The notes under the pieces: generated by a model | Databases searched by the model: none | What the model saw: the letters and a program-made list of their open reading frames with translations, nothing else | Told to the model about the DNA's origin: nothing | Virus record (IMG/VR): IMGVR_UViG_3300045970_000415 | Span: 1-42,755 of that record | Reading direction: 5' to 3' (one strand) | Length of the DNA: 42,755 nucleotides | From: a virus | Shown here: positions 9,170 to 29,809 of the stretch, piece by piece | How the letters are laid out: every line of letters starts with the position of its first letter | Numbering within the stretch: the first letter of the stretch is position 1 | Translations under genes and position numbers: made by a program

Positions 9170-10834
9170 ATGCACGCCACCCCACCCGCCACCATCCCCG
9201 GTGGCTCTATCGTAGACACCTACCTGCGAGACAGCGGAGGCGAAGGTCAAGACCGCTCAGTCTCACGTCAACTCGAAGCCATCAAAGAATATTGCCTGCG
9301 CCACAACCTCAAACTGCGCCACATCTATAAAGACGCCGCCAAGTCAGGCTGCTCCACTGTCGGGCGTGACTCTTTCGATCGCATGATCGCATCCACTCGC
9401 AGTGAAGCAGATCGTCCCGTGGCCATCCTCCTCTGGAATTACGCCCGCTTCGCGCGTGACCTCGATGACTCCACCTATTACAAAGCCCTGCTCCGCTCGA
9501 AGCGCAACATCATCATCCACTCCCTCACCGATCACATCCCCGAGGGACCCTATGGCCGCTTCGTCGAGATTCTGATCGACATCTCCAACGAAGAGAAACG
9601 CCGCCAAACTTCCATTGATACAAAAGATGGTCTCCGCTCCATCGTTGCCCAGGGCGCAGTGCCAGGCGTTCCACCGCGTGGCTTCAAACGTCAGCCCATC
9701 ATCACCATCAACCCGCGCACTGGCGAAGAGCGAAAGAATCACCGCTGGATTCCCGATCCAAAATATATCAACCGCATCCGCAAGGCATTTCAAATGCGCG
9801 CCGCAGGCTCCTCACTCGCTGAAATTCAAAAAGCCTGCAAACTCTTTACCACCGTCAACTCCTACGCCACCTTCTGGCGCAACCCGCTCTATTATGGCAC
9901 CCTGGTCTATGCGGGCATCACTTTTGAAATATACTGCGAACCCATCATACAAAAATCCCTGTGGGATAAAGTTCAACTTATCCAACAGGGATTTGCTCAA
10001 AGTAAAAATATAAAAACAGGCGACCGCAATCACCCGCGTCGTCAAAATTCCGAATTCATCTTAAGTGGTCTTGCCCATTGCGCCCGCTGCGGATCTCCCC
10101 TCTATGGCCGCACCTCCCATCAAAAATCGGGCTACAAATATCAATCTTATCTCTGCACCCTCGCCTATCGCAAACGCGGAGCCTGCACCAAGGGACGCAT
10201 TCCCAAACCTGCCTTCGAAGCCGCCATCATCAACGCCTTCGCTCGTCATATCCTCGAAAAAAATAATGTGGATGAAATGCACCGCCTCGATGCTGAACGG
10301 CAGGCTGGTCTCGCCTCCGAACAACAGGATCAGCGCCGTGAGGTCCTCATCCGCATCGCCTCCAACAAAAAACAGCTCACCAACATCATCAACGCCATCA
10401 CAGAAAACGGGTCTTCTCCCGCACTGCAAACCCGCCTCAAAGAACTCGAGCTTCAAAAACTCGAGCTTGATCTCGAACTCAGCGAACTCGAACAGAACAT
10501 GCGCGCAGATCTCGCCCCATCTCTCACCCCGGAACAATTTGAAAGCGGCATAAAACGCATCGCCTCCCTCATCCAGGGCAAAGATCCCGCAGAACAAAAG
10601 ACCGCCCTACGTGGTGTCATCGCCCGCATCGATGTTGAACGTCTGGAAAATACCATCAGAGGCACCATCTACTATTACCTCCCCAATGACGATGATATAA
10701 CCGGCCCCAGTAATCAACCTCCTCCGAATGGGGACGATGATGTGCCTACATCCCCTCACCCCTCGGGACCGCCTGTCCGTAGGCACATCATGCAATATCA
10801 TTTTATTGCATCAACAAAAAGACCACCTTCATAG
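9170..10834 (+). CDS. Large serine recombinase (phage integrase type)
   Basis: N-terminal resolvase-like YLRDSGGEGQDRSVSRQLEAI...KDAAKSG...LLWNYARFARD. Recombinase domain, zinc ribbon CARCGSPLYG...YLCTLAYRKRGAC, and a long coiled coil. Confidence 0.9.
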   Translation: MHATPPATIPGGSIVDTYLRDSGGEGQDRSVSRQLEAIKEYCLRHNLKLRHIYKDAAKSGCSTVGRDSFDRMIASTRSEADRPVAILLWNYARFARDLDDSTYYKALLRSKRNIIIHSLTDHIPEGPYGRFVEILIDISNEEKRRQTSIDTKDGLRSIVAQGAVPGVPPRGFKRQPIITINPRTGEERKNHRWIPDPKYINRIRKAFQMRAAGSSLAEIQKACKLFTTVNSYATFWRNPLYYGTLVYAGITFEIYCEPIIQKSLWDKVQLIQQGFAQSKNIKTGDRNHPRRQNSEFILSGLAHCARCGSPLYGRTSHQKSGYKYQSYLCTLAYRKRGACTKGRIPKPAFEAAIINAFARHILEKNNVDEMHRLDAERQAGLASEQQDQRREVLIRIASNKKQLTNIINAITENGSSPALQTRLKELELQKLELDLELSELEQNMRADLAPSLTPEQFESGIKRIASLIQGKDPAEQKTALRGVIARIDVERLENTIRGTIYYYLPNDDDITGPSNQPPPNGDDDVPTSPHPSGPPVRRHIMQYHFIASTKRPPS

Positions 10835-10846
10835 GGCGGTCTTTTT
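10816..10846. terminator. Bidirectional terminator between the convergent arms
   Basis: AAAAAGACCACC-loop-GGGCGGTCTTTTTGTTTT has one mismatch in the stem and T-runs on both strands. It lies between the stop at 10834 (+) and the stop at 10851 (-). Confidence 0.6.
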
Positions 10847-10850
10847 GTTT

Positions 10851-11306
10851 TCAATACTTTTTCATCAAATTGCTTGCCTGATCGCACACAAAAGCCAACT
10901 GCATCACCGAAGCCAGGTCATTCGGGAAAACGAACTGCGGAACCTTCGCCTTGATCTGCCCTGTGGCTGCGAACTTCGTGAAACTGACCACCCAGCGCGG
11001 ATCATTCGGGAATACGCGGAACGTGACGGTCAGATCTGTATTCGGCACCTGTGTAGGTTCGTCTGGATCAATGCGCGTGCCAGAACTTTTGGGTGCCTTG
11101 GCAATGATCTTGCCCACGTGTCTCGCTACCTTCCTGAGCGCATCCGCAAAATCTGCGAGATCCTCAGCTCGAGCGCCATCGATCCGAACGGTCTTGACTG
11201 TATACATAAACTTCGCCCGTGGCAGCGCCGAGATCATAGCCTCCACTGCTCCACCCTTATACATTGCCTTTGCTCTATTCTTTGTTGCGATCGTTAACTC
11301 TGCCAT
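10851..11306 (-). CDS. Hypothetical protein, last gene of the late operon
   Basis: 151-aa ORF with GAAGGAG upstream of the ATG. Confidence 0.6.
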   Translation of the reverse strand: MAELTIATKNRAKAMYKGGAVEAMISALPRAKFMYTVKTVRIDGARAEDLADFADALRKVARHVGKIIAKAPKSSGTRIDPDEPTQVPNTDLTVTFRVFPNDPRWVVSFTKFAATGQIKAKVPQFVFPNDLASVMQLAFVCDQASNLMKKY

Positions 11307-11493
11307 ACTGATTCTCCTTCAAAATTCTTATCTCTTCGAATTGTGCCTGAAGCAAATCCGTCAGATCCGCAAGCGCAATTGCAAGCCGCGTGATCTTTGC
11401 CTTCGCTGACAACAGCTCGCCTATTAATTCAAACTGTTCATTCCTGTCCAGTGGCACACCATATTTCTTATGGTTTGTAATGACGGTACTCAT
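11275..11493 (-). CDS. Small coiled-coil protein
   Basis: [44 protein letters not shown]... The ATG at 11493 forms an ATGA overlap with the stop of the upstream GT gene (11490-11492). Confidence 0.5.
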   Translation of the reverse strand: MSTVITNHKKYGVPLDRNEQFELIGELLSAKAKITRLAIALADLTDLLQAQFEEIRILKENQYGRVNDRNKE

Positions 11494-12395
11494 GCACGCA
11501 TTTTCAACCACGCGCTCTTGTCCGCTGGCCACGAAGGGATAGGCGCGAAGCGTTTGATCAACCACTCGAAATCATGGATGCGTCCTTCCCATCTGTCGTT
11601 CAGCCAGTGATCAATTGAAAAACGATTGCCATTGTCACGCTCCGATCTTCCTACTCGCGAATATGTTTGACCTATTACTTCCTTGTATGCGTTTCGATAT
11701 GGTTCGCCCTTCCACAAGTGCGCATACCAGGTCTTCTTATTGACCATCACCTGCCCCCCGCCAAGCCATGCCTTCAATCCTAATTCTTGCGCCTCACCGA
11801 TGAATGAGCCATAACCAGTTTCATCCATCTGAACGATACGCCGCTGAAAGAATTCCTTTGGCATAAACCAGCACGAACCTTGGAACGTCATTGTCTCGTC
11901 AATTAATCTATTAATTCGGCTGATGATGCGCTCGTCCCATGTCCACCCGTGCAGACCAAGTTCATTGCTCTTGCCTTTCATCTTTGCTCGGTACGGCCAG
12001 GACAAATATTCATAATCCACAAAGGCTCGATGCCTTCGCACGCTCCACGTTTCCGCATCGAGTGCGTATCTGCGCGGAATAACGATCCAATCCTTATCGC
12101 AATCGGCTTTCAGCGTTTCATCATAGCCCTCTGCGATCAGGCAGTGCGCGTCGATCTTCATGATGTATTCGCCTTTGGATACTGCGATCCCAGCGTTGAT
12201 GGAGGCCCGCATTCCGCGGCGCTCCCTATGGACAATGATCAAACGCGGGTCATCTGGCAATGCTTCGATCGGCCAATACCCGTCAAGAATAACAATGACT
12301 TCGATCTCGCCCGTTGCTTTTGCCAATAGATCACAGACAGTTTGCTTTAAATAAAGTTCATTTCGTGCAGGGATGATTACAGATACTTTTTTCAT
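11490..12395 (-). CDS. GT-A fold glycosyltransferase (GT2-like, with DxH and Gal/GalNAc-T-like motifs), paralogue of 14695..15615
   Basis: [10 protein letters not shown]...IEVIVILDG...KIDAHC...[33 protein letters not shown] overlap with the repeat-protein stop at 12392-12395. Confidence 0.75.
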
Positions 12396-14695
12396 GGGAA
12401 TAAGTTTATTGAAGATACGTTAACTCCGTTTATTTTGACGATCACAAGCAATCCAGCGCTCGGGCTTGCGGATGGGCTGGTGCTTGGACTAACCGAAGGG
12501 CTTACACTCGGACTCGCCGAAGGGCTCGCGCTTTCCGACACACTCGGAGATAAAGAAGCCGATGGTGACGCAGACTGTGAAGCCGAAGGGCTTACGCTAG
12601 GCGATGCGCTCGTGCTTGCCGACGGACTGATAGATGCAGAGGGTGATACGGAAGGTGAAACACTTTCACTTTTGGAAGGGCTTGCACTGGCTGACGCTGA
12701 TGGGCTAATGGATGCGGAAGGCGAAGCACTCGGAGAAACGCTTGGGCTTTTCGACGGACTTGCGCTTGCTGATGCCGAAGGACTTATAGACGCACTCGGA
12801 CTTACCGAAGGGCTTGCGCTTGCAGATGCTGATGGGCTAATGGATGCGGAAGGTGAAGCACTCGGAGAAACACTTGGGCTTTTCGACGGACTTGCGCTTG
12901 CTGATGCCGAAGGACTTATAGACGCACTCGGACTTACCGAAGGGCTTGCACTGGCTGACGCTGATGGGCTAATGGATGCGGAAGGTGAAGCACTCGGAGA
13001 AACACTTGGGCTTTTCGACGGACTTGCGCTTGCTGATGCCGAAGGACTTATAGACGCACTCGGACTTACCGAAGGGCTTGCGCTGGCTGACGTAGATGGA
13101 CTGATAGACGCAGAGGGTGAGGCACTCGAAGACGCGCTTGGACTTTGAGACGGGCTTGCGCTAGCACTCGCTGACGGAGATATTGATGCTGACGGAGACG
13201 CTGACGGCGACGCTGATTGCGAAGCACTTGGCGACGCTGATGGACTTGCGCTTGCACTTGCTGATGGCGAAGCTGAACCGCCGCCAAATGGATTGAGCGA
13301 AACCAAAAAGGCGTGCTTGGTTGTAGATGTCGCCGAAGCGGTAAAGTTTACGACCCCCGTTGCGCCTGAGCCACTCCAATTGCAGTGCGCGAAAGTCCTG
13401 CTGAACGTGGATATCGAACCACTATCAGAGTCTTCTACCCAATCATTGTCCTGAGTGGCAGGCTTGGTGAACGTTCTTACCGTTGTTGAGTAAACCGCGC
13501 CAAGGGCGATAAGGTTGCGGAGTGTCGCGCCTGTCGTGACCGCCGCCGCCTGAACAGTGGTATTGCTTGTGACGTAATTCGTGTTTGAACTGGCTTCAAT
13601 TGGTGATGTAAGGCTGTAACCGTAACGATAAGTCGCAATGGTTATCGCAATCTTAGTTGTGCCACTCGTTCCCCATGTATAAGTGGCGCCTTCACTCGCC
13701 CCTGCCAGTTTCCAATATATGTGATATTTGTCGGATGTCGATGTTTTACTCTGTAAAAGCGTCCAACCCGTAGGTACTGAGTTGACCGTGAAGCTAGACA
13801 CGTCACGGATACCTACGAATGCAAACATCAAATCGTTTTGCGCGGTGTTTGTCGGTTTATTACACGCCAAAGAAGTCGCCGCGCCATTATCGGCGGCCGC
13901 TGTATTGACCAGAATTGTGTCACTACCTGCGCTTGGAGAGGCAGATGGGGATGCGCTTGGGCTTACTGATGGACTTGCTGACGCACTAGCTGAAGGTGAA
14001 ACCGACGGACTTGCCGACGCCGACGCGCTCGGACTAGCACTACCAACCGCTGGCATCAAAGCGCATTGCCATATCACATAAGATAAATAGGTTGACGTTG
14101 TAATACTTGAAATCCCTGTCGCCCCTGTTGACATTCCTAACTTATCTAAGGTTATGCCAAGTTGTTGTCCAGTTGCGCTTTGAACGTTGCTATACCCATT
14201 ATTGTTGCTTGTATATGTGGTGGTGGTGGGCTGATAATCGTCACCCATCAATAGCAACGCGCACGCGCCAGAAGTAGCGATGGTTATTGATGGTGCGCGG
14301 GCGTTTCCTGCTATCGCCGTCCCTTCTACTAAACCAGTCGCCCTATTTCCCGAAGCTGGCGCAACATCCCAAATATTGGCCGTATCCACGCCTCGGTATT
14401 GGCGGATAACGATTGACCATCTTCCTGAACTCCCTTGCGTAAAATTATAGGTCGCAGGTTCGCTTCCGCCCGCTACCCGCTGGAATATATAAGCGGTAGC
14501 ACTGTCTGGATTTGCCGCGCTGTCAGCAGTCGTGAACGGAGTAGAACCATTATTATCAGTGGAAGTTTGCCCTGCTCCATTGCCATTGATAAACGCAATC
14601 AGAACATCTCCTGATGCTATGGTCAGTCCATGAGTGATGGAAACATTTCCAGACGCTCCGCTCGCCGCCGCCGTTCCGATTAATGATATAGCCAT
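12392..14695 (-). CDS. Mucin-like Ser/Pro/Ala tandem-repeat protein with two paralogous globular domains (candidate glycosylated virion fibre or decoration)
   Basis: 767 aa: globular domain 1, a ~40-aa SPSA linker, globular domain 2, about 280 aa of (S-P-S-A/V/I/K/Q)n, then a 20-aa tail [20 protein letters not shown]. The start overlaps the upstream stop (TAATG at 14695). Confidence 0.8.
12699..13094. repeat. 132-bp tandem repeat, 3 near-identical copies (44-aa units) inside the repeat protein gene
   Basis: Units start at 12699, 12831 and 12963 (gatgggctaatggatgcggaagg...). Copies 2 and 3 are identical for about 119 bp by eye. Shorter degenerate SPSA-coding repeats extend over about 12455-13290 and 13925-14045. 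Confidence 0.85.
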
Positions 14696-15615
14696 TATTT
14701 ACTCCACTCTGGAACAGGAAAAAATTTTTCAATTAACCATTCAAGAGGGTGAATAGCCTTATCCCATTTATTGTTCAGCCATAAGTCTTGACTATACTTC
14801 CGCGCGCGCTCTATGCCAGGGTTCGGATACGGAAATCCAAAGTCACCGCCTTGCGTGCGGAATAGATGGGCATACCAAGTTGATCGGTCAATAATAACTC
14901 TGCCACCTGATAACCACGTCTTACAGGCTACCTCTGTGCCTTGCTGACCCCATGAGCCGTGTCTTTCGTCGCACAGATCCAACTCAAAATATTTATTTCG
15001 TGTCACCATAAAGCAAGAACCTTGCAGACTCATGCTCTCCACAAGATTTCCTTTTTGCTTCTTTTGCAGTTCACCCCAATACTGGAAGTGAAGTTGTTTG
15101 TCAAAACGATATGCTGACGACTTGGGGCTTGGCTTGGCTATCCAAACCACATCCATAGTCGTGGGTAGTCCGCAGTCCAGGCACGGACCAGATACACCTT
15201 GGTATCTCCGATGCCCTTTTTCACATACCCAATCAAAGGCGTGTAAGTTGCGCATGAGTGGTGAGACAGTCCAATCGTCTTGCACGTTCGCCATCAACTT
15301 CACATCGAAGCCTTGGTCAAAACTGCAATGAGCATCCACCTTCATCAAATACTTCGCATCCGATACTCGCGCCGCCTCATTCGTAGCCGCACGTTGCCCG
15401 ATACTCTGTGCGTGATGGATCAATGTCAAACGCGGATGGTCTGGTATAGGTATTTCAGGCCACGCGCCGTCTAGTACTGCTATGACTTCTGTATCGCCTT
15501 CACTGTGCGCAAATATGTCTTCAATCGTTCGATTGAGGAACATTTCATTTCGCGCAGGAATGAGAATACTTAGGTCATACATCTTTGCCAAAATCCGTCT
15601 GTGATTACTTTCCAA
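14695..15615 (-). CDS. GT-A fold glycosyltransferase (GT2-like, with DxH and Gal/GalNAc-T-like motifs)
   Basis: [10 protein letters not shown]...TEVIAVLDG...KVDAHC...[29 protein letters not shown]. The start may be the internal MYDLS (15582). Confidence 0.75.
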
Positions 15616-16412
15616 TTGAAACGCTTGCGCGCTTCGGTCGCGTCTACTGTCTTAGGTGGTGACTTGAATAACCTTATTAAACTTTCTGTAACTATCTTGG
15701 GTGAACCTTCGGGAATGAAGTCAGCAAGGCCATCAAACCACTGCCGGTAGTTCGGGGTGTCGAATACAATCGGTCGGACGCCACAGAATAAAGCTTCAAC
15801 CGCAGGTATTTCGAAACCGTCTTTTCTGCGCAATGCCGACACGAATGTACATTGATTAAATATATCACGCAGGGTTTCGTCGGTGTTCACAGGAAATGAT
15901 GTAACAATTGGATTGGCGTACCCTTTCCCAATGTGCGCAACCACTCCTCCGACTGAGTATGCCGACAAATATACTTCACCAAGGCATTCATTTCGATACG
16001 TGGTTCCATTTGTGCAAACAATATATTTCTTTTCGCGCTTCAAATCAATAAAGACATCTGGGTTAGATGCAAGCGGGGCGTGGTACAGATTGACCAACTT
16101 GAACGGACTGGGGATTTTACTTTTCAAGTCGTAATAGCTCCACACTACCTTCGCGCCACTCCATATGGCTAACCAATCATCGGCGCTTGGGTTTCGACTG
16201 CTCTCCAAGACGTACTGAATGACCGCGTATTTCTTGCCTGCCTTGATAATTTCCTTCGCCTGTTGCGTGACGTGCTGATTGCGCCCGATCACATGCAAAA
16301 TGATCAGATCGGCTTCAGCGGCATCATGCACACGGGTTATATTTTCTGGCAGATTCGCGTCAAGCGCATCAATCACGCGCTGAATGCCATAGCTTTGTAA
16401 GCTGATATCCAT
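15570..16412 (-). CDS. GT-B-like glycosyltransferase (GT1/GT4-like C-terminal motif)
   Basis: RRKDGFEIPAVEALFCGVRPIV resembles the (E/D)x7E region of retaining GT4 enzymes. ATG at 16412 (MDISLQ), with an upstream GTG at 16445 possible. Confidence 0.55.
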   Translation of the reverse strand: MDISLQSYGIQRVIDALDANLPENITRVHDAAEADLIILHVIGRNQHVTQQAKEIIKAGKKYAVIQYVLESSRNPSADDWLAIWSGAKVVWSYYDLKSKIPSPFKLVNLYHAPLASNPDVFIDLKREKKYIVCTNGTTYRNECLGEVYLSAYSVGGVVAHIGKGYANPIVTSFPVNTDETLRDIFNQCTFVSALRRKDGFEIPAVEALFCGVRPIVFDTPNYRQWFDGLADFIPEGSPKIVTESLIRLFKSPPKTVDATEARKRFNWKVITDGFWQRCMT

Positions 16413-16420
16413 GAATATTT

Positions 16421-17050
16421 TCACTTGACCGCTTTCTTCACCCACATAAAGGAACGGTTTCTATCCCGTATCAACCCAGGCGTTTTGGCGCGTGTGCCAA
16501 GCAGAAACCACGGCTTGATCATATAAGCATCCGTGAAGCCGTTGACTACCGATGTGACATGCATATTCTGCGATGGTCTGCGGAGCTTCTTGTAATCATG
16601 CCCAGAAACGATTCCGCCCACACGAACCTTCTTGCTCCAATAATACAGGTCTTGCGCCGCGTGCAGCCAATCATGGTTGCCGTCAATGTACACAAAGTCA
16701 AGGCTTTCATCTGGTATCTGTGCCGCCGCTTCAATGCTCGTCATGTGCAGCACGTGCGTGTTATATCCAGCCAGCCTGCGGAGCGCCTCCGCTTTTGCAT
16801 CTTCCATCCCGCCAATATAGAAATCATCGTAATTCTTCCAGACATCTACAAGGTACAGTGTGACTGTCGGGTTAGCCTTGCAGATAGCCTCGGAATATAT
16901 TCCTTTGAACACGCCAACCTCCGCGCCGATCTTGAATCCAAGTTCTGCGAATAAATTGACGAGTTGAAATCTCCCGTAATTCGGTATCTCGATCGGTGAA
17001 CGCCTGCTCGAAAGATTGAACTTATTCAAAATAAAATCAAGTGTATCCAT
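16421..17050 (-). CDS. Class I SAM-dependent methyltransferase (sugar O-methyltransferase-like)
   Basis: GAEVGVFKGIYS (motif I), FVYIDGNHDW, GGIVSGHDY. Confidence 0.65.
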   Translation of the reverse strand: MDTLDFILNKFNLSSRRSPIEIPNYGRFQLVNLFAELGFKIGAEVGVFKGIYSEAICKANPTVTLYLVDVWKNYDDFYIGGMEDAKAEALRRLAGYNTHVLHMTSIEAAAQIPDESLDFVYIDGNHDWLHAAQDLYYWSKKVRVGGIVSGHDYKKLRRPSQNMHVTSVVNGFTDAYMIKPWFLLGTRAKTPGLIRDRNRSFMWVKKAVK

Positions 17051-17053
17051 TTA

Positions 17054-18430
17054 TTATCCTATCTCAAAGTAATCATTGCTTGGATTGAAACTCAATTCAT
17101 GCGCCGTCACCGCATGTCCTATCAGGCGAATGATCTGCCCAGCCGCCGCCGATGGCGCGCTCTCCTGTATCGCTCCCGCTGTTGTCCCTGCGTATTGAGG
17201 AACGCCAACCGTCATGGCAAATACAGCATCACTTCGAACGCGCCCATTCACCAAAATTGTTGTTGGTTGCCCATCTCCGCTTGCGGCTAAAATGCAAATA
17301 CCCAGTCTGCCTTTTGTGGTCGCTTCCGCGTCTGCATCAACAAGCACCCATTTTGATGATGAATTAAAATAAACAAGATTACCAAAAGACAGTGCCGCGC
17401 CTGCTGTTCCGCTTTCTGTATCTCCAAAAAATTCACCATCTGCCAAACCAGATTTTACAGGCTCAATTCCAGGTATCTTGACATAAGAACAAAAATTATA
17501 TGCGCCGTATTTTATAGTTACATCAAGATCAGAAACTTCTGCAGTTTGAGCATAGAATTTGAATACATATCTATCGGACAAACTGACTGCTTGGTTGTTA
17601 TTTAGAAAATCTAGTCCATTATAAAAATACGCGCCTCCAGTTCCGTTCATATCCAAGCTGACGGCACTGGACGTTCCAACCAGGCTTTCCGAACCGCCTG
17701 AAATGCGTTTGTACATTTTCAAGCTTATCGTTGTTGCAGAGGCGGGAACTCTGGAAGTCATTCCCCAAAATAGAAAATCCCAGATGGCTTTATTTATATG
17801 CCGAGTTCCTAATTGTGGTGTTACCCAACAAAATAATTCAGTCTGCCCATCGGCGCTATTTATCGTAACTGTTTTTGTGGCTGGGCTTGTTGCTGTTGGC
17901 TCAAGCTTTGACATAGTGTAATAAGTGCTAATTCCAGACGGGGTATTAGTCAAATAAAGTGGATCTGCATATGATAGGTAGTTAACTTGAATGCCGCTAT
18001 CCTGAATATGTTTGCCAGTTGCATCTGAATAAGTGACTATATTTCCCGCCACACTTGGAACGGTATCACCCACCACGTCCCCCGTTCCGCCTGTAATGAT
18101 TGTGCCGCCGTTGTCGCCCACTCCTGAAACCACCACGCCATCCACCACAACTGCAAACGTGTACACCACACCATCGCTCGGGATCAATACTCCCAGCGGA
18201 GAGATTATCACTCCGCTGAACACCGCGCTGGTTGGGTCAGACGTCCCTCCTGGCACAGACGGCATGATGATCTCTTTATTCTGCTGGATCACCTGCGTGA
18301 TAAAGTTAGTCGTGTCGCCCGCCCGCATCTTCCTGAACTGGTCCTCCAGCCAGTCCACCCGCGTGAATAAGTTCCCCTTCTTCCCGTTGATTATTTTCTT
18401 ATAAAAATTCTCAAAAGTTTCATCTGGCAT
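17054..18430 (-). CDS. Tail fibre / receptor-binding protein
   Basis: 458 aa at the distal end of the tail module. Gly/Val/Thr-rich beta-type N-terminal half with an IVTYSDATGKHIQDSG fibre-like motif. TAATG overlap at 18430. Confidence 0.6.
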   Translation of the reverse strand: MPDETFENFYKKIINGKKGNLFTRVDWLEDQFRKMRAGDTTNFITQVIQQNKEIIMPSVPGGTSDPTSAVFSGVIISPLGVLIPSDGVVYTFAVVVDGVVVSGVGDNGGTIITGGTGDVVGDTVPSVAGNIVTYSDATGKHIQDSGIQVNYLSYADPLYLTNTPSGISTYYTMSKLEPTATSPATKTVTINSADGQTELFCWVTPQLGTRHINKAIWDFLFWGMTSRVPASATTISLKMYKRISGGSESLVGTSSAVSLDMNGTGGAYFYNGLDFLNNNQAVSLSDRYVFKFYAQTAEVSDLDVTIKYGAYNFCSYVKIPGIEPVKSGLADGEFFGDTESGTAGAALSFGNLVYFNSSSKWVLVDADAEATTKGRLGICILAASGDGQPTTILVNGRVRSDAVFAMTVGVPQYAGTTAGAIQESAPSAAAGQIIRLIGHAVTAHELSFNPSNDYFEIG

Positions 18431-19443
18431 TACAGCACCTTGCCCGTGAACAATTCAACCGTCCCGCGCGCCTCATCAAACCTATATCCCATAATGCGCA
18501 CATAGTCACTGTTGCCCAGTCCATCCCCATCAAACCCAACATTCGTGTACTTGTACTTCACAACATTTCCCAGGCGGATGTTCTTGAAAGTATTACCCAC
18601 ATTGACCACCGTCAGCGGGGTCGCAATATCGGGCGTCCGTTGCCGCCGTATCAATGCCTGCGCAAATCCTGGCAGCGCCCCATCATCCTGGTTGGTGATG
18701 TATTCTTTACGTGCCGCTCTCAACCCAAATTGACTGCGCGAAGCACTGTCCTCTTCAATAATGGAGGTCGGGCTTTCGCTCTGCTGGTTTGACATGGCAT
18801 GTATATAATTCAGGATCTCACCGCTTTCTTCCAGCGGCGTGTCTCCATATAAAATATTGCGCCCCTGCGATAATTCCAGATCCGTCACGATCCCAGCCCT
18901 TTCCAACCAATCCATGGAAATAGTTAATCTTCCGCTGGAATCTACGGCAGGCGTGCAGATCCAATCATGACCGTAGTTTTTACTAATTCCCTTGATGTGA
19001 GATAAAACCGTGTCAGTCAACATTTCAGAGGCGGAAACACCACTCTCTGTCATCCTACCCATTCGTATCAGTGTATCTTCATTCGAGTTCGCAAGATCAA
19101 CCAATTGATTAACCAATTCACTCGGCAATCCAGTGATCATCGTATTCACCGGGCTTAATCTGTAGTTCAGCAAGCTCATCGCTTCATATGCGTGTACTTC
19201 AACCAAGCCGCTTCTCCAGGTCCTCGGAGTGTCGATCATTCCAACCCAATCAGGCATCTGGTCGTGTTGCACAAGCAGAAAGTTTCCATACTCCAGCAGC
19301 TCGCGCCTGCACTTGTTGGAAAATGTTGAAATGGAAAATATCGCCTCGCCAACATCGTTGAGCAATGACGATCTAATGACCGCTGTTCTAATATCAGCGA
19401 TCGGAGTTCCATCTCGTCCGTAAACTGTCTTCAGTCCGCCCAT
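18430..19443 (-). CDS. Tail-tip / baseplate-hub-like structural protein
   Basis: Positioned between the distal tail protein and the fibre. ATG at 19443 overlaps the upstream stop (TAATG). The track start at 19467 is a TTG. Confidence 0.5.
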   Translation of the reverse strand: MGGLKTVYGRDGTPIADIRTAVIRSSLLNDVGEAIFSISTFSNKCRRELLEYGNFLLVQHDQMPDWVGMIDTPRTWRSGLVEVHAYEAMSLLNYRLSPVNTMITGLPSELVNQLVDLANSNEDTLIRMGRMTESGVSASEMLTDTVLSHIKGISKNYGHDWICTPAVDSSGRLTISMDWLERAGIVTDLELSQGRNILYGDTPLEESGEILNYIHAMSNQQSESPTSIIEEDSASRSQFGLRAARKEYITNQDDGALPGFAQALIRRQRTPDIATPLTVVNVGNTFKNIRLGNVVKYKYTNVGFDGDGLGNSDYVRIMGYRFDEARGTVELFTGKVL

Positions 19444-21416
19444 TAGATCGTATTCCTTCCGCGCCAACTGGTGACAATGGTTACATCAGATGTGCCAGCA
19501 TCGGACCATGCCAGCGTATTTGCGCCCGCCGAAAACGTCATCCATTCGTCACGCTTCTCGCCATTGAAGGACAACATTCCACGCACCCGCCTGCCGTCTG
19601 CGTTGTATACCTCCTGGTTGGCACAATCAATGGTCAGCGTCAGGCTGGTCTTTGTGATTACACCTTCGAACACTACAGTCTCTGCCGTAGTGTTGTTCTT
19701 GAGCGTTCCGCCAATCGTGTAGTTCTCTTGAGAGATGGCGATGGCCATTATCGTCGGTGGATCTGCAATGGTCAGTGTCACAGCGTTTAACTGTGCATAG
19801 CAAAGCGGTTGAGGTATTTGCCCGCCAGTGACTATAAAGTAAACACGCGGCGGATTGCTGAGAATGGCCTCATTGACAGAGATGGCCTCTACAGTTCCGT
19901 CCGTCAAAGCGGGCTGAGTGATGTTATATATCGAAGTTCCTGTCAAATCGATCTTATCAGTAAGCCAAACACTCACAGGCCATGCGGGGCTGGACGACCA
20001 GGTTGCCTTTTCTCCAGTGGCTTCGAAATTAGAGATACCACCTGCGTGGAAGAACACAAAACCTGCCGTCGTAAACAACTTATTGATATTGATGATGGCT
20101 GACACAACCGCGGGGTTCGCAATCGCGTCTGGAACATATAAAACCTTATTGCCAATCCTGATATATTCGCGTGTTTCAGACCATGGCCAATACGTGTTGT
20201 ACTGCGTAGCCGCGCCTGCCTGCTTGGCTTGCGCTGGCTGGTCGCTATTTCTAATGGTTCCGAACGTGGCGTAGATGAAGTCGCTATTGGTTGAGTCGAC
20301 TTTATCAAAAGCGGGTCCATATGTCGTTGCACTTTTCACCAACGGAGGAGTGGCCGCTGCATTCTTGTACAACAACCATATTTCGTTTTCGATCCAAAAC
20401 GCTTCTGTGCTTATCGTGTGAGACGCGAGGGAACTGCCTTTCGCGCCACGCTCCACCAGCGTAAACGTTGCGCGCTTGGTAGTCGCATTGACTGTATAAG
20501 TGGAATAGGTAAATAATTCATTTTCAATTTGGAGCGTCCCGTTCTCTGGAATAGTAATGGCGGTGTCTGTGTAGGATAAATCTATTGTCGCAGGCTGAGT
20601 GCTGTTGTTCAAAGCAGTTTCAAGCGCAAACGTTGGCTGAACCGAAAAGTTTAGGTTCACCCAAATTTTAGTTGAGGTGCTGTTCATTCCACCACCGCCG
20701 AACCACCTGTCTGCCTCTATCCCGTTGACACTAACTCTCACATCGTCACCAGAGGCCAGCATATCTCCAGCCGTGACAAGCGTTGCAGTATCCAGCCCGC
20801 CGTCTGTAATATCAACAGGAAGCTTCGTCATTCCCCAGCCGCTCGTGTGGATGGCATAAAATGTTTTCTTCTTATATCCCGCTCCCTTCGTGGCGTTCGG
20901 CGTGATCTCAAAGATCGGCAGCGCAGGCACATTCCCCACCGCTGTGATCACGTTCGTATCCGTCCCGCTCGTAATGTTCCAGGTATCCGTGTTCAGATCG
21001 TTCTCGATCCAATACGGAGCGGACAGCGCCAGCGTGATGTTATATAGGTTCTTCATTGCGCCTTCCACCAGCATCGGCGGCGTCACGGGGTAGCCTTCCA
21101 AATACCAATCCTTATTCCCGTTGTCAATATCCAGCCCCACCAGTTTCCGCAATGTGAAATCGTTCGGCATGAACCAGCCGCACAATATATCCCGTTGACT
21201 CTCCAGGTCTGCGTCCGTGCTTCCCAACAACTGCACCTGAAACGTATAGTACGTTCCTGCCAGTGTCTTTCCACTCAGAACAGGGTCGCTCTGTCCCAGG
21301 TCAATGAAATTCGCCGTCGCTGAAGACATCCCATTCCCCACGCCGATCGGTACGCGCGCTTCATAATCGCTGTCGTCCAGGCTGTGCCCGTCCCATGTGC
21401 TGATCGCCATTCTCAT
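19443..21416 (-). CDS. Distal tail / tail-tip structural protein (large)
   Basis: 657 aa immediately after the tape measure, with a TAATG overlap at 21416. Confidence 0.55.
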   Translation of the reverse strand: MRMAISTWDGHSLDDSDYEARVPIGVGNGMSSATANFIDLGQSDPVLSGKTLAGTYYTFQVQLLGSTDADLESQRDILCGWFMPNDFTLRKLVGLDIDNGNKDWYLEGYPVTPPMLVEGAMKNLYNITLALSAPYWIENDLNTDTWNITSGTDTNVITAVGNVPALPIFEITPNATKGAGYKKKTFYAIHTSGWGMTKLPVDITDGGLDTATLVTAGDMLASGDDVRVSVNGIEADRWFGGGGMNSTSTKIWVNLNFSVQPTFALETALNNSTQPATIDLSYTDTAITIPENGTLQIENELFTYSTYTVNATTKRATFTLVERGAKGSSLASHTISTEAFWIENEIWLLYKNAAATPPLVKSATTYGPAFDKVDSTNSDFIYATFGTIRNSDQPAQAKQAGAATQYNTYWPWSETREYIRIGNKVLYVPDAIANPAVVSAIININKLFTTAGFVFFHAGGISNFEATGEKATWSSSPAWPVSVWLTDKIDLTGTSIYNITQPALTDGTVEAISVNEAILSNPPRVYFIVTGGQIPQPLCYAQLNAVTLTIADPPTIMAIAISQENYTIGGTLKNNTTAETVVFEGVITKTSLTLTIDCANQEVYNADGRRVRGMLSFNGEKRDEWMTFSAGANTLAWSDAGTSDVTIVTSWRGRNTI

Positions 21417-23398
21417 TATACGAATCCTTTCAGTGTCTTCTTCGGGTCAGTCTTACCCGAGTAGATCGTGATCTGTGGGTTGTAATAATTCACCGTCCCG
21501 CTGTTCCCCGGCATTCTCCCCCCCTGTGGGATCACCGCGAATGTCTCACCGCTGGTCAGTCCCATCCCATAAGTATCGTTCGGGAATCCGCTTGGCACCG
21601 TCTGCCAGCCATCCGTTCCAGTCGCAAAGCCTGTTCTTCCTTTCGGTTTTGGCTTGGATGCGGGCGTATTTGAAGCGATGGCTGATCCACCCGTCGCAAA
21701 GCCGCTGAAAATTCCTTTCACTGCACCAAACAAACTGCTCGCCGCATTTATCAAAGCGGGAGCTGCTCCCAAAAATCCTTTAACCAAACTATCAATAAAG
21801 CTCTTGCCAACGTCAGACCAGGAAATTCCAGCAAGCCATGATTTCAATCCGGAGATTGCGGCAGAGAATATTGTTTCGATATTCTTCCAGCCTGCTTGCA
21901 GGATTATGCCGAATGCTTTCCAAGTGTTATCCCAAATTCCGCGCAAGGCCACACCGAGCGCATCCCAATCCCCAGAAAATATCGCCTGAAACGCTGAGAA
22001 AATTAAACGTATGTTTGCCAGGCCAAGTTGAAGGTATCCCTTTATTGCGTTAATGGTAGTAAACCAAATCGCAGAGAGTGCGCCTAGTTTCCCCTGTGTC
22101 AATTCTTGAATGAATTGCATTCCACTTTGGATTACAGACGTGATAAAACTCCATGCCGCACTGATCGCAGGCACGAGGGTATTTGTCCAGAAGCTCGACA
22201 ACGCCGTGATTGCCAGCGGAATATTGATCGAAAGCCAGTTCCAAATGTTTTGCAATATAGGCTGAAGCCACGCCCACACTGCAGCGGTCTTTTGCTGAAT
22301 GCCGCCCCAGTTTTGGGTCCATGCAGTATATAAAAGATATGCCGCCAGGCCAATTGCCGCAAAAGTTAATATGACTGGAGCCATGCTAATAATGGTTGAA
22401 ATTGCAAATGCAATAACTGCCGAACCAAGTATCGCCAATATTGCAACAACAACACCCTTGTTATTTTGCAGCCAGGCAAAGGCATCCTTAAATTGCTGAA
22501 TAAAATTCGGAATGTTATTTACAGCCGTGCTTGCCAAATTAGCTATGGATGTAGATAACCTATCAATAAATGCCTGCACTTCAGGCCGATTGATGTAGTC
22601 ACTGAATGTAGTTGCCAGATCTCCTAGAACAGGCAGTAATTTTTTCCCAACACTCTCACGGATATTTCCAAGCTTCACATCTAGGATGGCGAGCTGCCCT
22701 GCAAACGTTTTACCCGCCGCCTCTGCGCTTCCGCCAAATTCAGTGGATAATTCCTTGAGGATTAATATTTGTTTCTCCTCCTTGCTCATCAAAGGAGTAA
22801 ACTTTTTCCTAAGCTCATCAACGTTGACGCCCACCCTGGCCAGAGCGCCAAGGCCAGCGTCAGGATCTTGAAGCGCTTTCCCTAATTGTATGGACGTTGC
22901 CTGCAGCTGTTCAGCGCTGGGAATTGCTCCGCCGTTCATCGCGGTAGCCATGTCTGTTACAGCCTTGGTGGCGCCGGGGAATACATTCTTCCCAATATCG
23001 GTGAACGTCAACAGCATGCTCTGGGCGCTTACAAGCGCCTCATCGTCAATGCCTGTTTTCATGGCCGTTGCATCGGCCAGCGCATTGACTTGAGAAGCTG
23101 TAATCCCCGCAATTCCACTCGTCGATTGCAATACTGAATTTAATTGTGACTGGACTCGTTCGTTGTCAACCGCAGCCTGCACATCAGCACGCAGCTCAGT
23201 AGTAAAAGCGGCCAGACCTACGGCGCCAGCAATAAAGGCGGCTCCCAATACACGGCCACCAATGCCAGCCACCTTGCTTCCAAGTGCCTGCATCTTGCTT
23301 TGAAAACTATCGACAGTGTTCGCTGAACGCTTCATGCCAGATTCGAATTCGCTACTATCAACTACTAATTTTGATGTGATCGTTGCCGCGGTTGTCAT
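21416..23398 (-). CDS. Tail tape measure protein
   Basis: 660 aa, helical Ala/Gln-rich N-terminal half, hydrophobic Trp/Ala/Ile-rich central region. It directly follows the frameshifted chaperone pair. Confidence 0.85.
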   Translation of the reverse strand: MTTAATITSKLVVDSSEFESGMKRSANTVDSFQSKMQALGSKVAGIGGRVLGAAFIAGAVGLAAFTTELRADVQAAVDNERVQSQLNSVLQSTSGIAGITASQVNALADATAMKTGIDDEALVSAQSMLLTFTDIGKNVFPGATKAVTDMATAMNGGAIPSAEQLQATSIQLGKALQDPDAGLGALARVGVNVDELRKKFTPLMSKEEKQILILKELSTEFGGSAEAAGKTFAGQLAILDVKLGNIRESVGKKLLPVLGDLATTFSDYINRPEVQAFIDRLSTSIANLASTAVNNIPNFIQQFKDAFAWLQNNKGVVVAILAILGSAVIAFAISTIISMAPVILTFAAIGLAAYLLYTAWTQNWGGIQQKTAAVWAWLQPILQNIWNWLSINIPLAITALSSFWTNTLVPAISAAWSFITSVIQSGMQFIQELTQGKLGALSAIWFTTINAIKGYLQLGLANIRLIFSAFQAIFSGDWDALGVALRGIWDNTWKAFGIILQAGWKNIETIFSAAISGLKSWLAGISWSDVGKSFIDSLVKGFLGAAPALINAASSLFGAVKGIFSGFATGGSAIASNTPASKPKPKGRTGFATGTDGWQTVPSGFPNDTYGMGLTSGETFAVIPQGGRMPGNSGTVNYYNPQITIYSGKTDPKKTLKGFV

Positions 23399-24197: not shown

Positions 24198-24635
24198 CTA
24201 TAATGGGGTGATGACGGGTTTGCCGGTGACCTTGATCTTGCCAGACAATTGGCCTTGCTTTTCTAAAGGCAGATCAGGCTCGTGAGCAGTGACGAACCCA
24301 CTGAATGCGATCGAAACGATATCAGGGACGGTAATCTTCCAGTGATGGATAACATCATCGTTGAACGAAGCATGCAGACCTGTGTCCGAATCATCCTGGG
24401 TTGCATTTACGGGCAGCCAGTTTGCTTCATATCCAACTTCCCCGCCATCGCGCCAGGCTGAGAGGTATTCGCGATACCCATTTGGAGACAACGTATGCGT
24501 GACTTCAATCTTGTCACGAGATAAATTCGGAGGCGTGAGTTTGGTGATCTCAGCCACTGGCGTAAATACTTCAGTGGGAGTCGCACCATCTCCTGCTTCC
24601 AAGGTTGATCCATAAGCCCAAAATGCTTCCGACAT
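24198..24635 (-). CDS. Major tail (tube) protein
   Basis: 145 aa. Called from its position upstream of the chaperones. Confidence 0.6.
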   Translation of the reverse strand: MSEAFWAYGSTLEAGDGATPTEVFTPVAEITKLTPPNLSRDKIEVTHTLSPNGYREYLSAWRDGGEVGYEANWLPVNATQDDSDTGLHASFNDDVIHHWKITVPDIVSIAFSGFVTAHEPDLPLEKQGQLSGKIKVTGKPVITPL

Positions 24636-26388: not shown

Positions 26389-27000
26389 CTAAACAAGGTA
26401 ATACACATCCACAGCAGTCCCATTCAAAGAACTGTTGAGGTCAACCGTATTATCTTCCACAGCGGCCGCAGAGACCGTCACTGTGGGAGCAGTGCCTTCC
26501 TTTGTGTTTCCAAGGTAAGCGAACAGCACGGTGTTATGAGACAGCTTGCTCGGCAAACCAAGTTTTTCGCCAAAGCCGATCTCAGTGGTGGCGCCAGTAC
26601 CATCGTGAGCTGGGAGTGTGACTGAAGTCACGGTCTTGAACGCCTTTGAGCCTGCCACGCTTCCAGCAGTATTGACTGTGAACGCGGGCAAGGTTTCCGT
26701 GATGATTTCGCCAGCTTCATTCGTGCCCTCAACGATCACCTGCACGGCTTTGATGTCGCCAGCGGTCCCGCCAGCAGTCGCGGTGATATTGCGTGCCACG
26801 CTCGGTTGCGTGAAGCCTGTTTCGATCACCTGCTCTTCGCCAGTATCAGTTACGGCGGCATGCACACCATTGGTATCCGCTGCGGTTGCTTTGACGGCGC
26901 TCACCTGAAGATGGGCAATGAAAGCCTCGTCAACAGTCACACCTGGGGCATTGGTTTGCAGTCTTTGGCCTGCGCTTGGTTTATGGGGATAAAGAGACAT
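26389..27000 (-). CDS. Structural protein downstream of the major capsid gene (possible head decoration or fibre)
   Basis: 203 aa, Thr/Ala/Gly/Val-rich beta-type sequence. Position only. Confidence 0.45.
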   Translation of the reverse strand: MSLYPHKPSAGQRLQTNAPGVTVDEAFIAHLQVSAVKATAADTNGVHAAVTDTGEEQVIETGFTQPSVARNITATAGGTAGDIKAVQVIVEGTNEAGEIITETLPAFTVNTAGSVAGSKAFKTVTSVTLPAHDGTGATTEIGFGEKLGLPSKLSHNTVLFAYLGNTKEGTAPTVTVSAAAVEDNTVDLNSSLNGTAVDVYYLV

Positions 27001-27010
27001 GTGAATCTCC

Positions 27011-27973
27011 TTATCCGGTCAGAACTGCAAATGGGAAACCAGTGCCGCTGTCCAAACGAGTTACAGGCTTGGGCAGCGCCACGCCAATACGCATCACCGC
27101 GCGCAAGGCAACCATGTCTTGTTGTGCGAGGTTGTAAACGATCGCGCCAGTGCCATCTTGAATCACGGCCTGATCCAAAATCTTGAAGGTCATATCCTGG
27201 CGTGCTGAATAAACCAATTTGTTCCACTGACCGCTCATCAATTTATAAGTTTCATCGACCACACCATTTTCAGGAAAATCAATTGGTGAGCCATCGAGCA
27301 GATATTGGGTGGCTTCCTGCATTGAGTTCTTGAAGATGGGTTTCCCATCGGCATCTCGTACATTGCGAAGCTTGCGCATGAACGAGATTGGTGCAACGCT
27401 TGCAGACACACGGTAGCCCTTGGATTCAACTTTTCCGAACAGGCCAGATGCTTCTGCGTCCGTCTCGCCCAGGATCGCTTCATACAAATCTTGATATGAC
27501 GCGAGGGAAATCAAATTGCCAGCCGCGGTCGCTCCTGCAACCAGGCCTGCCCCGCCCAAATTGGTTGTCCAGCTTGCGGGAATATTTGTTCCATAAAACA
27601 CAGCCGCATCGAGCACACGCCCAAATTCCTCGATCAACGCGTTCTTTACCTCGCCCCAGATGTCATATTTGGCATCAGACAACACAGCTTCAGAGATGGG
27701 CACAATTGCCGCGATTTCTTCCGCGTCAATATATTTGTTCGCCCATTCCATCTTTGTCGTTTGCTTCAGCCCGGTATCGCCATTGACGAAATAGGCGGAA
27801 GCCAACGCCGAAAGAACTGGCATACGAGTTTGATTGGTTGGCATGTTCGCAAGTTTGCGACCATATTTCAGCGTCATGCTGGAGCTATAGACCGATCCAA
27901 GAATTTCGCTTGAAACATTTTCCGGGATTAATGCAGACGCATCGTTACGGGAAATAACACTGTTGTACGGCAT
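27011..27973 (-). CDS. Major capsid protein (HK97-fold type)
   Basis: 320 aa, directly after the scaffold gene, with sequence character typical of capsid subunits. Confidence 0.8.
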   Translation of the reverse strand: MPYNSVISRNDASALIPENVSSEILGSVYSSSMTLKYGRKLANMPTNQTRMPVLSALASAYFVNGDTGLKQTTKMEWANKYIDAEEIAAIVPISEAVLSDAKYDIWGEVKNALIEEFGRVLDAAVFYGTNIPASWTTNLGGAGLVAGATAAGNLISLASYQDLYEAILGETDAEASGLFGKVESKGYRVSASVAPISFMRKLRNVRDADGKPIFKNSMQEATQYLLDGSPIDFPENGVVDETYKLMSGQWNKLVYSARQDMTFKILDQAVIQDGTGAIVYNLAQQDMVALRAVMRIGVALPKPVTRLDSGTGFPFAVLTG

Positions 27974-29571: not shown

Positions 29572-29809
29572 GGCGTCTGTTTTCCTCGAAGAAATCGATC
29601 GCCTCTTCGACGCAAGTAATGATCGTCATCTCCACACAGCCTTTCTCCAGCCGTTGCACTGCATACAGCACATCTGGGTCAGGTGCGCCGAACATTCGGA
29701 AATAATCGCCTGCATATCTCACACCCTCGATCACGATCACATCCCCTGCTTCCCTCTCGATCGAAACAGGCTTCTTCACATCATGCGGCAAAGTTTTTAT
29801 AAAATTCAT
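29564..29809 (-). CDS. Hypothetical protein
   Basis: 81 aa, with an ATGA overlap with the portal stop at 29806-29809. Confidence 0.5.
   Translation of the reverse strand: MNFIKTLPHDVKKPVSIEREAGDVIVIEGVRYAGDYFRMFGAPDPDVLYAVQRLEKGCVEMTIITCVEEAIDFFEENRRHA

Follow-up and report, generated by a model that had tools for sequence, protein, structure and literature searches.

GT27-like glycosyltransferases encoded beside (Ser-X)n repeat proteins in uncultivated phages: a probable system for O-glycosylation of structural proteins

The stretch of phage DNA analyzed here is IMG/VR virus record IMGVR_UViG_3300045970_000415, 42,755 nt in length and referred to below as the window. Five consecutive minus-strand genes follow its tail module and encode a methyltransferase, a compact GT-B glycosyltransferase (GT), a GT-A transferase (GTA1), a 767-aa repeat protein (REP) and a second GT-A transferase (GTA2). 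This cassette is probably a phage-encoded cytoplasmic system for the O-glycosylation, together with O-methylation, of serines in the (Ser-X)n tracts (SX tracts) of the phage's own structural proteins. A first-pass annotation made from the DNA alone had proposed an O-glycosylated fiber; all computational tests run came out in favor of that hypothesis, the support being comparative and homology-based throughout. To our knowledge, a few actinophages are the only tailed phages for which glycosylation of the virion is documented.

The repeat protein and its coupled enzymes

The repeat was counted at 330 residues in two tracts of REP (residues 214-260 and 469-751), close to the approximately 320 estimated previously. 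The (S-P-S-A/V/I/K)n pattern first assigned to these tracts held as to their richness in Ser; the true form is stricter, an (S-X)n dipeptide in which X varies. Across residues 473-749, Ser occupies 137 of the 138 positions of one phase without a phase slip, and the X residues are A (54), P (48), V (12) and I (9), then K and others. All six Ser codons are in use in the tracts (AGY 74, TCN 84). Selection for the periodicity therefore acts on the protein, and a simple DNA repeat does not account for it. A higher-order unit of 132 nt (44 aa; 3.7 copies, 92% identity) is superimposed on the SX repeat and is a recent tandem amplification. The protein had been described as 'mucin-like'; its (S-X)n repeat is closer to the bacterial serine-rich-repeat adhesins than to classic Pro/Thr/Ser mucins, and the NCBIfam matches of the long tract, to staphylococcal SD-repeat adhesins, were of low complexity. 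Two plus-strand open reading frames (ORFs), 12435-13148 (237 aa) and 13728-14081 (117 aa), both G/L/A/D-rich, are antisense shadows of the Ser-X repeat and not genes, and are open to mis-annotation by automatic callers.

All five ORFs were recovered where the first-pass annotation had placed them (Table 1), and the tight coupling described there was read directly from the sequence: TAATG at 14697-14693, ATGA at 12395-12392 (the GTA2/REP overlap) and ATGA at 11493-11490 (the overlap of GTA2 with a 72-aa ORF). The ATG of the methyltransferase lies 3 nt past the stop of the upstream 458-aa gene, and the cassette, with its overlapping stop and start codons, is co-oriented with the late structural operon. 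Homologs of GTA1 align only from residue 12, and its true start is therefore probably the ATG at 15582. No transmembrane-like segment was detected in any cassette protein (maximum KD19, the 19-residue Kyte-Doolittle hydropathy, ≤1.57), and the cassette contains no flippase, polymerase or lipid-carrier transferase.

Glycosyltransferases and methyltransferase

Both GT-A calls agreed with Pfam (Glycos_transf_2; Table 1), and the claim that the two are paralogs was upheld at 34% identity over 315 aa (E 3e-55). As a single sequence, GTA1 gave polypeptide N-acetylgalactosaminyltransferases (ppGalNAc-Ts) as its best PDB matches (6iwq, 2.7e-6). Family profiles were then considered, A1 from 69 GTA1-type and A2 from 70 GTA2-type sequences. 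The best solved structure for A1 was the GT27 ppGalNAc-T catalytic domain 1xhb (7e-13), and for A2 the GT27 domain 6s22 (2.3e-13; profile positions 4-254 of 288), so that for GTA2 the GT27 match spans almost the entire domain. Other GT2-type structures (3bcv, GalT1 5hea, 6p61, chondroitin synthase and SpsA) cover the first 80-100 residues only, in the N-terminal half that binds the nucleotide. The first-pass annotation had held that kinship with polysaccharide, teichoic-acid or lipopolysaccharide (LPS) enzymes would count against it; among solved structures both GT-A profiles were nearest GT27, and TarP-type enzymes were not among the GT-A profile matches at E≤1e-3. A tblastn search with GTA1 against 50,697 GenBank phage records returned no match.

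The DxH Mn2+-binding motif reads DAHC in both GT-A proteins and aligns with LDAHCE of 1xhb. Positions D94/H96, W222-G223, E228 and H250 are invariant across the 69 GTA1-family sequences, as are D82/H84/H226 across the 70 of the GTA2 family. The Gal/GalNAc-T-like motif and distal His of GTA1 (ending in YAHLFR) align with WGGENLEISFRIWQCGG...VGHVFR of GT27. Since the three GT27 metal ligands and the motif are invariant in both families, both paralogs look catalytically competent, as far as conserved residues can indicate. The ricin-type lectin domain and type II membrane anchor of GT27 are absent from GTA1 and GTA2 (301-306 aa, with a GT2 Pfam domain only and no hydrophobic segment), and for this reason the enzymes are called GT27-like and not members of GT27. 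A Cys-rich insert (CxxC...CxxC) was also observed in the GTA1 family, at 15163-15225 of the window (residues ~131-151), with C131, C145 and C148 invariant; it is missing from GTA2 and GT27, resembles a Zn ribbon and perhaps binds a partner or substrate.

For the GT-B enzyme, the Pfam match was weak (Glycos_transf_1, 1.3e-3, below the cut-off), and the 'GT-B-like' label was borne out by an AlphaFold2 (AF2) model of two Rossmann-like domains (predicted local distance difference test [pLDDT] 93, predicted template modeling score [pTM] 0.89). A Foldseek comparison of this model with the PDB gave 261 matches at E≤1e-3. The best were GT4 enzymes (BshA, 2e-11) and included GlgM, the methylmannose-polysaccharide mannosyltransferase 7qsg and MshA; TM-scores normalized to the query (TMq) against BshA, HepE, SenB, MshA and ManT were 0.66-0.77. 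Among 147 homologs of the same size, many have a precomputed PF00534 domain. At ~285 aa the enzyme is much smaller than GtfA, which was not in its 50 best structural matches.

The S-adenosylmethionine (SAM) methyltransferase was likewise correctly called, matching Pfam Methyltransf_24 (Table 1). Its profile had a single PDB match, 6g7d (2e-4), which we take to be the sugar 1-O-methyltransferase of the methylmannose-polysaccharide pathway of Mycobacterium hassiacum. As 6g7d and 7qsg come from one pathway, they provide a lead, and just a lead, toward an O-methylated hexose glycan. The best phage relative of the methyltransferase is a Lokiarchaeota virus protein annotated as an O-methyltransferase. 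The family is labeled 'DNA methyltransferase' in PHROGs, a label that on the Synechococcus-phage relatives is an electronic annotation. Searches of the same GenBank phage records with GTA2 and the methyltransferase (tblastn) returned no Mycobacterium phage records.

REP as a candidate virion protein

Structure prediction of REP had been suggested at the outset, and its N-terminal domain was modeled with a phage minor-tail-protein fold. Residues 1-215 reached an AF2 pLDDT >90, and the domain model had 54 viral matches at E≤1e-3 (Foldseek, BFVD), many of them Mycobacterium phage 'minor tail protein' entries. Nothing significant was obtained for the REP model against the PDB (Foldseek), and tblastn of the N-domain against GenBank phages gave no match. 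In BLASTP the middle domain aligns with the N-domain across 98 aa at 31% identity (E 1e-5) and is a diverged copy of it. No hydrophobic segment of REP is fit for a signal peptide, transmembrane segment or anchor (maximum KD19 1.57).

Thirty sequence homologs of the N-domain were found. Those examined carry the domain at their N-terminus, followed by unrelated C-terminal parts, which in one homolog are His-rich tail-fiber-like repeats; a conserved N-domain with exchangeable distal parts follows the usual logic of a virion anchor. Two homologs are encoded just downstream of a large terminase and a portal-sized gene in other phages, and the family is also present on P0013, which is membrane-anchored at its N-terminus and has FN3-like domains. 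SX proteins located by an independent DNA pattern adjoin genes for J-type tail tip, Dit, minor tail, portal and terminase proteins; other neighbors at these loci are Methyltransf_24, Laminin_G_3 and GDP-mannose dehydratase. In the window itself, neither the major capsid protein (27011-27973) nor the major tail protein (24198-24635) has a C-terminus rich in Ser or Thr.

Many relatives terminate in a short non-repeat tail or in a knob of 60-90 aa. In loci from metagenome-assembled genomes (MAGs), the layout is an N-domain, a giant SX tract and a conserved 60-90-aa C-terminal knob, with no signal peptides, and the SX tract of a single protein reaches 2,056 residues (L127). The knob carries the motif IPSWN..GRPKK.KKGTFGFN.QTN.LEYWNGS.W (L127:17941-18237; also L087, L092, L120, L131, L132 and L133), has no Pfam match and is probably a receptor-binding tip. 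A different arrangement was observed at L142:18489-21585, where a phage has a REP N-domain homolog (P0004, bearing His-rich tail-fiber-like repeats) and no SX repeats, and where the sugar cluster combines a 937-aa GT1+GT2 fusion with an epimerase and a GT2 enzyme. Such phages may therefore glycosylate their virions in several ways.

Distribution of the cassette in uncultivated phages

Relatives of GTA1 numbered 144 in IMG/VR and 60 in genome or MAG contigs. A first survey covered 81 sources, namely 80 of the 144 IMG/VR loci with a GTA1 homolog and the window, with flanks of at most 10 kb around the relatives' loci; a gene was scored as an SX gene if it had a tract of at least 40 residues. Within these 81 sources GTA1 co-occurred with GTA2 in 72, with the methyltransferase in 56 and with the GT-B enzyme in 10. 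The first-pass annotation had proposed looking for conserved synteny in related phages, and the GTA1/GTA2 cassette, with or without the methyltransferase, was found to adjoin Ser-X repeat ORFs across 132 non-redundant loci. SX tracts were present in 102 of 417 genes (24%) at distance 1-2 from the cassette and in 20 of 568 (3.5%) at a distance of at least 5 (odds ratio 8.9, Fisher p 2e-23). Where both flanks were present, an SX gene lay within two genes of the cassette in 50 of 74 loci. A reverse census was made from loci picked by a DNA pattern for SPSASPSAS, the stretches covered being short; GTA1/GTA2 was present in 7 of 36 SX-bearing loci and in 0 of 83 control loci without SX.

Two parts of the original description changed with this wider sample. 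The transferases do bracket the proposed acceptor gene in the window; elsewhere they do not, the SX gene being inside the cassette in 1 of 141 loci and flanking it otherwise. The notion of a single dedicated acceptor protein had to be dropped, since in relatives SX tracts occur on several virion-type proteins (a post-capsid protein, lectin-domain proteins, and fibers with an N-terminal anchor and C-terminal knob). The non-repeat parts of the SX proteins are not conserved with the cassette; it is the repeat that recurs.

A second lineage of 80 loci (L145:10001-10738, L146-L224) encodes a protein with a ~110-aa domain and an SX tail ending in SPSPSFP(F/D), directly after a ~369-aa protein that matches major head proteins (phrog_267, 2.8e-15). 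The SX tail is present in every complete copy, and the cassette follows downstream in nearly every locus with enough sequence, between the head and tail genes and away from any integrase. The SX-tailed protein is a candidate glycosylated head decoration or head fiber. The window has no member of this family, its post-capsid gene (26389-27000) being without an SX tail. Another SX protein of the second lineage bears a Laminin_G_3 lectin domain, and genes of this type are counted as auxiliary to host adhesion in surveys of Patescibacteria-linked phages.

Fusions of GTA2 with the GT-B enzyme (L034, L035) and with the methyltransferase (L049, L051) tie the enzymes to one pathway. Additional genes in relatives encode UDP-glucose dehydrogenase, DegT aminotransferase, formyltransferase and a further GT2 enzyme. 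The commonest additional component, present in most relatives, is a ~220-aa module (YYTDN...EHD..YH...), either fused to GTA1 as a C-terminal extension or free (e.g., L005:10900-11584). The window lacks this module, which matched no Pfam family and may represent another GT-A-like transferase. Homing endonucleases were observed inside the cassettes of relatives, as a GIY-YIG and NUMOD3 fusion to GTA1 (L019:10001-12103) and as free-standing HNH/AP2 (L145:14902-15357) and HNH/NUMOD3 (L187:12684-13310) genes, and the cassette appears to be a hotspot for the insertion of mobile endonucleases.

The 60 MAG records with relatives were labeled as Patescibacteria lineages (32), Gammaproteobacteria/Pseudomonadales (21) and other taxa (7). 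Some of these loci lie within chromosomes of <1 Mb. An origin of the MAG loci as cellular surface-glycoprotein systems borrowed by phages was considered and is rejected for now: the giant SX proteins have no signal peptides and combine a phage-type N-domain with a fiber-like knob, and at least one MAG locus is inserted between sensor-kinase genes of the host, which also counts against a cellular origin.

Proposed mechanism and alternative explanations

Late in infection, REP would be made together with the tail proteins, and GTA1 and GTA2 would transfer a sugar, most plausibly N-acetylhexosamine (HexNAc) or hexose, from the host nucleotide-sugar pool onto approximately 160 Ser of the two SX tracts. 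As no nucleotide-sugar enzymes are encoded in the window, host pools would serve. The compact GT4-like GT-B enzyme would extend the glycan, and the Methyltransf_24 enzyme would O-methylate it. Under its dense glycan the SX tract would become a bottlebrush stalk, extended and resistant to proteases, which for the 283-residue tract at ~0.3 nm per residue would measure ~85-100 nm, and the N-terminal minor-tail-type beta domain would dock REP on the virion, at the tail. The paired GT-A paralogs might have different site preferences (Ser-Pro vs. Ser-Ala/Val), might act early and in follow-up like GT27 isoforms, or might form a heterodimer. In this scheme we infer the SX serines as acceptors, the identity of the sugar, the order in which the enzymes act, the sugar as target of the methyltransferase and incorporation into the virion, and the same applies to the 'initiating' and 'elongating' roles and the ecological functions put forward in the first-pass annotation.

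Several points weigh against O-glycosylation of the SX tracts by these enzymes. The proposed substrate is assigned through guilt by association and homology to GT27 at 15-25% identity; the ricin-type lectin domain of GT27 is lacking in both GT-A enzymes, and closer, unsolved GT2-type relatives with other substrates may exist. The loci compared are phylogenetically related, so the Fisher p value overstates their independence. About a third of the loci with both flanks (24 of 74) lack an SX gene within two genes, and many SX loci picked by DNA pattern have no cassette within the short stretch covered. The middle domain of REP was modeled at pLDDT <50 and no fold was assigned to it. The 'tail-fiber' label of the 458-aa gene (17054-18430) rests on its position downstream of the tape measure, with no family match. 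Only ~650 nt separate the cassette from the integrase region in this temperate genome, a typical site for lysogenic-conversion genes.

This last point leads to an alternative that is judged unlikely, although it ranks ahead of the other two considered. The enzymes would serve lysogenic conversion or another auxiliary function by modifying a glycan of the host envelope (a wall teichoic acid, S-layer or LPS-type polymer), which would block superinfection or alter adhesion of the host, and REP would be a neighboring fiber with a flexible linker. Soluble prophage GT-A enzymes that glycosylate teichoic acid exist (TarP), and the cassette does stand at the end of the tail module beside the integrase region. 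Surveys of Patescibacteria-linked phages have also read GTs and ConA/LamG genes as host cell-surface modification genes (PMC11310336, PMC12911398). However, the nearest solved relatives of the enzymes are protein O-GalNAc transferases and not polysaccharide or teichoic-acid enzymes, and flippase, polymerase, lipid-carrier transferase and membrane segment are all absent from the cassette. Its genes are co-oriented and translationally coupled with the late structural genes, in a large related lineage it is placed between head and tail genes and not beside an integrase, and the eight-fold enrichment of SX genes adjoining it would be left unexplained.

Somewhat less likely again is an SX protein that is glycosylated but does not belong to the virion. 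It could act as a decoy that is released or set free by lysis, contribute to a matrix or to adhesion, or be displayed by the lysogen. The REP gene follows recognizable tail genes, and the membrane-anchored P0013 with its FN3-like domains places the N-domain family in a setting that would suit such a role. REP itself has neither signal peptide nor transmembrane segment, however, its N-domain has the predicted fold of phage minor tail proteins, homologs and other SX proteins are encoded inside head or tail modules, and relatives show the classic fiber layout of N-terminal anchor, SX stalk and conserved C-terminal knob. The least probable of the three, and one given little weight, is that the SX tract is an unmodified disordered linker and that the enzymes act on other late targets, either other virion proteins, as in mycobacteriophages, or phage DNA. 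The PHROGs label of the methyltransferase family would fit the latter, phage GTs that hypermodify DNA are known (cited in PMC12619734), and mycobacteriophage glycans are located on capsid and tail-tube C-termini. Against this, Ser/Thr-rich tails are missing from both the major capsid protein and the major tail protein of this phage, no recognized base-hypermodification genes were among the window proteins scanned, and Methyltransf_24 is not a DNA methyltransferase family, the label being electronic on the Synechococcus-phage relatives and the best phage relative, from the Lokiarchaeota virus, being annotated as an O-methyltransferase. The GT27-like kinship and the SX adjacency would again have no explanation.

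Comparison with known systems

Mycobacteriophages with an O-methyltransferase and three tandem GTs glycosylate their capsid and tail tube, according to PMC11600133 and PMC12619734, which both cite Freeman et al. 2023. As portrayed there, the systems of Che8, Corndog/cluster O and Myrna resemble the present cassette in their tandem phage O-methyltransferase and several GTs (PMC11600133), in cytoplasmic action on the phage's own structural proteins and in a glycan thought to coat the virion; the acceptors described there are short C-terminal tails of the major capsid or tail-tube proteins, whereas the only candidate acceptor here is REP, a protein in its own right in which 330 of 767 residues are strict (S-X)n. 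Similarity between the enzymes (methyltransferase, GTA1 and GTA2) was not detectable by tblastn against the 50,697 GenBank phage records.

In Gram-positive bacteria, the serine-rich repeat glycoproteins (GspB, Fap1 and SraP) have long tracts in which Ser alternates with A/V/T/E/I. They are glycosylated in the cytoplasm by an adjacent, dedicated set of GT-B and GT-A enzymes, and the tract forms a stalk that presents a binding domain. The long Ser-X repeat and the adjacent dedicated GT-B and GT-A genes are shared with the window. In contrast to these systems, the window has no accessory Sec (SecA2/SecY2, Asps), signal peptide or LPXTG anchor, and no Sec genes were noted among its ORF translations (19 scanned against PHROGs). 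The candidate initiating enzymes are GT27-like GT-A proteins and not a GtfA/GtfB GT-B pair, and the carrier would be a virus particle and not the cell wall. The only sequence tie is the partial N-terminal match of the GT-A enzymes to GalT1 (5hea).

In animals and apicomplexans, the GT27 polypeptide GalNAc-transferases initiate mucin-type O-glycosylation on Ser/Thr in Pro-rich repeats. They share with GTA1 and GTA2 the DxH and Gal/GalNAc-T-like motifs and the distal His, as well as Ser-rich, Pro-containing (here proposed) acceptors and several paralogs per substrate; the lectin domain, membrane anchor and secretory-pathway setting are absent here, identity is low, and GTA1 has the extra Cys-rich insert. 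SdgA and SdgB glycosylate Ser of the SD repeats in ClfA and SdrC-E and shield the stalk from proteases. The staphylococcal system is alike in its strict Ser-X repeat and dedicated adjacent GTs, with the low-complexity NCBIfam match to the long tract of REP, but X is Asp only, the enzymes are GT-B only and the protein is cell-wall-anchored. The prophage enzymes for seroconversion and teichoic-acid glycosylation (GtrABV, TarP) are, like the present ones, GTs that temperate phages encode close to the integrase and to the end of the tail genes. Gtr differs in needing membrane proteins (the GtrA flippase, membrane-bound GtrB and an integral-membrane, serotype-specific Gtr), none of which is in the cassette.

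The first-pass annotation had not recognized the arrangement as described, and full-text literature searches gave no description of it. Phage virion glycosylation by a cluster of methyltransferase and GTs is already known, as are glycosylated Ser-X stalks in Gram-positive adhesins. What appears new is the combination of GT27-like enzymes, strict (S-X)n on phage structural proteins and a wide spread in uncultivated phages, which the literature searches did not bring up. More tentatively, and with somewhat less than even confidence, the loci may represent an unrecognized class of phage appendage, in which the fiber shaft or head brush is a single strict (Ser-X)n polypeptide (~50 to >2,000 residues) and not a trimeric beta-structure, made rigid and protease-proof by dense O-glycosylation and methylation by viral relatives of ppGalNAc-Ts. 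Such appendages would be widespread among uncultivated phages, with hundreds of genomes, many of them integrated in or binned with MAGs labeled as Patescibacteria/candidate phyla radiation (CPR) or Gammaproteobacteria.

If the O-glycosylation reading is true, virion glycosylation would also take in a large group of uncultivated phages, with another enzyme family and another acceptor logic. Prokaryotic viruses would have relatives of the eukaryotic mucin-type O-GalNAc transferases, which bears on the origin of GT27. The GT and ConA/LamG genes of CPR-linked phages, now read as auxiliary to host adhesion (PMC11310336, PMC12911398), would become particle-building genes. An (S-X)n tag is simple and can be genetically encoded, so that soluble enzymes able to decorate it would also be an attractive tool for glyco-engineering; the system, at four small genes plus a synthetic repeat, lends itself to a direct test in E. 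coli.

Genome context and feature coordinates

The window is a singleton, unbinned JGI/IMG metagenome contig from a temperate siphovirus-type phage. Self-comparison revealed an exact terminal overlap of 127 nt (bases 1-127 = 42629-42755), which indicates a circularly closed assembly with a complete unique genome of 42,628 bp. Structural genes were identified by a library scan of the window proteins (Table 1). The 657-, 345- and 458-aa proteins downstream of the tape measure had no family match, and their tail roles are assigned by position only. A tRNA scan found none, hence no clue to an attachment site. Counts from a promoter and terminator scan of 10500-18600 equaled the shuffled expectation, so that operon boundaries could not be set from them, and megablast of 11000-21500 against GenBank phages gave no match.

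Table 1. Positions of the cassette, REP segments and other phage genes in the window
Feature	Position	Strand	Size or content	Basis
SAM-dependent methyltransferase, Methyltransf_24 class, proposed sugar O-methyltransferase	16421-17050	minus	209 aa	PF13578, 7.4e-14
Compact GT-B, GT4-like glycosyltransferase	15570-16445 (GTG start) or 15570-16412 (ATG start)	minus	~280-291 aa	
GTA1, soluble GT27-like GT-A transferase	14695-15615 (TTG start)	minus	306 aa	Glycos_transf_2, 1.1e-8
REP, repeat protein	12392-14695	minus	767 aa	
REP N-terminal all-beta domain, proposed virion (tail) attachment module	14057-14695	minus	residues 1-213	AF2 pLDDT >90
REP short (S-X)n tract	13916-14056	minus	residues 214-260	repeat count
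REP middle domain, diverged copy of N-domain	13292-13915	minus	residues 261-468	BLASTP
REP long (S-X)n tract, proposed O-glycosylation acceptor and extended stalk	12443-13291	minus	residues 469-751	
REP hydrophobic C-terminal tail and stop codon	12392-12442	minus	16 residues	ends ...SSINLFP
GTA2, second soluble GT27-like GT-A transferase	11490-12395	minus	301 aa	Glycos_transf_2, 4.3e-17
ORF coupled to GTA2 via ATGA, cassette membership uncertain	11275-11493	minus	72 aa	no family assignment
Tail module directly upstream of cassette	17054-23398	minus	tape measure, 657-aa and 345-aa distal tail proteins, 458-aa putative fiber	
Tape measure	21416-23398	minus		phrog_58, 9.8e-20
Major tail protein	24198-24635			library scan
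HK97-type major head protein	27011-27973			library scan
Portal	29806-31200			library scan
Large terminase	31247-32809			library scan
Large serine recombinase	9170-10834	opposite to cassette		family matches

Apart from the cassette, a minus-strand ORF was observed that runs from 362 through the contig junction to 41935. Its N-terminus, MKKLILIVFLFLTACGSS, resembles a lipoprotein signal and is followed by Q/A/T/R-rich repeats (ATQARMDM...); the product could be a membrane-anchored exclusion protein or a lysis-related protein.

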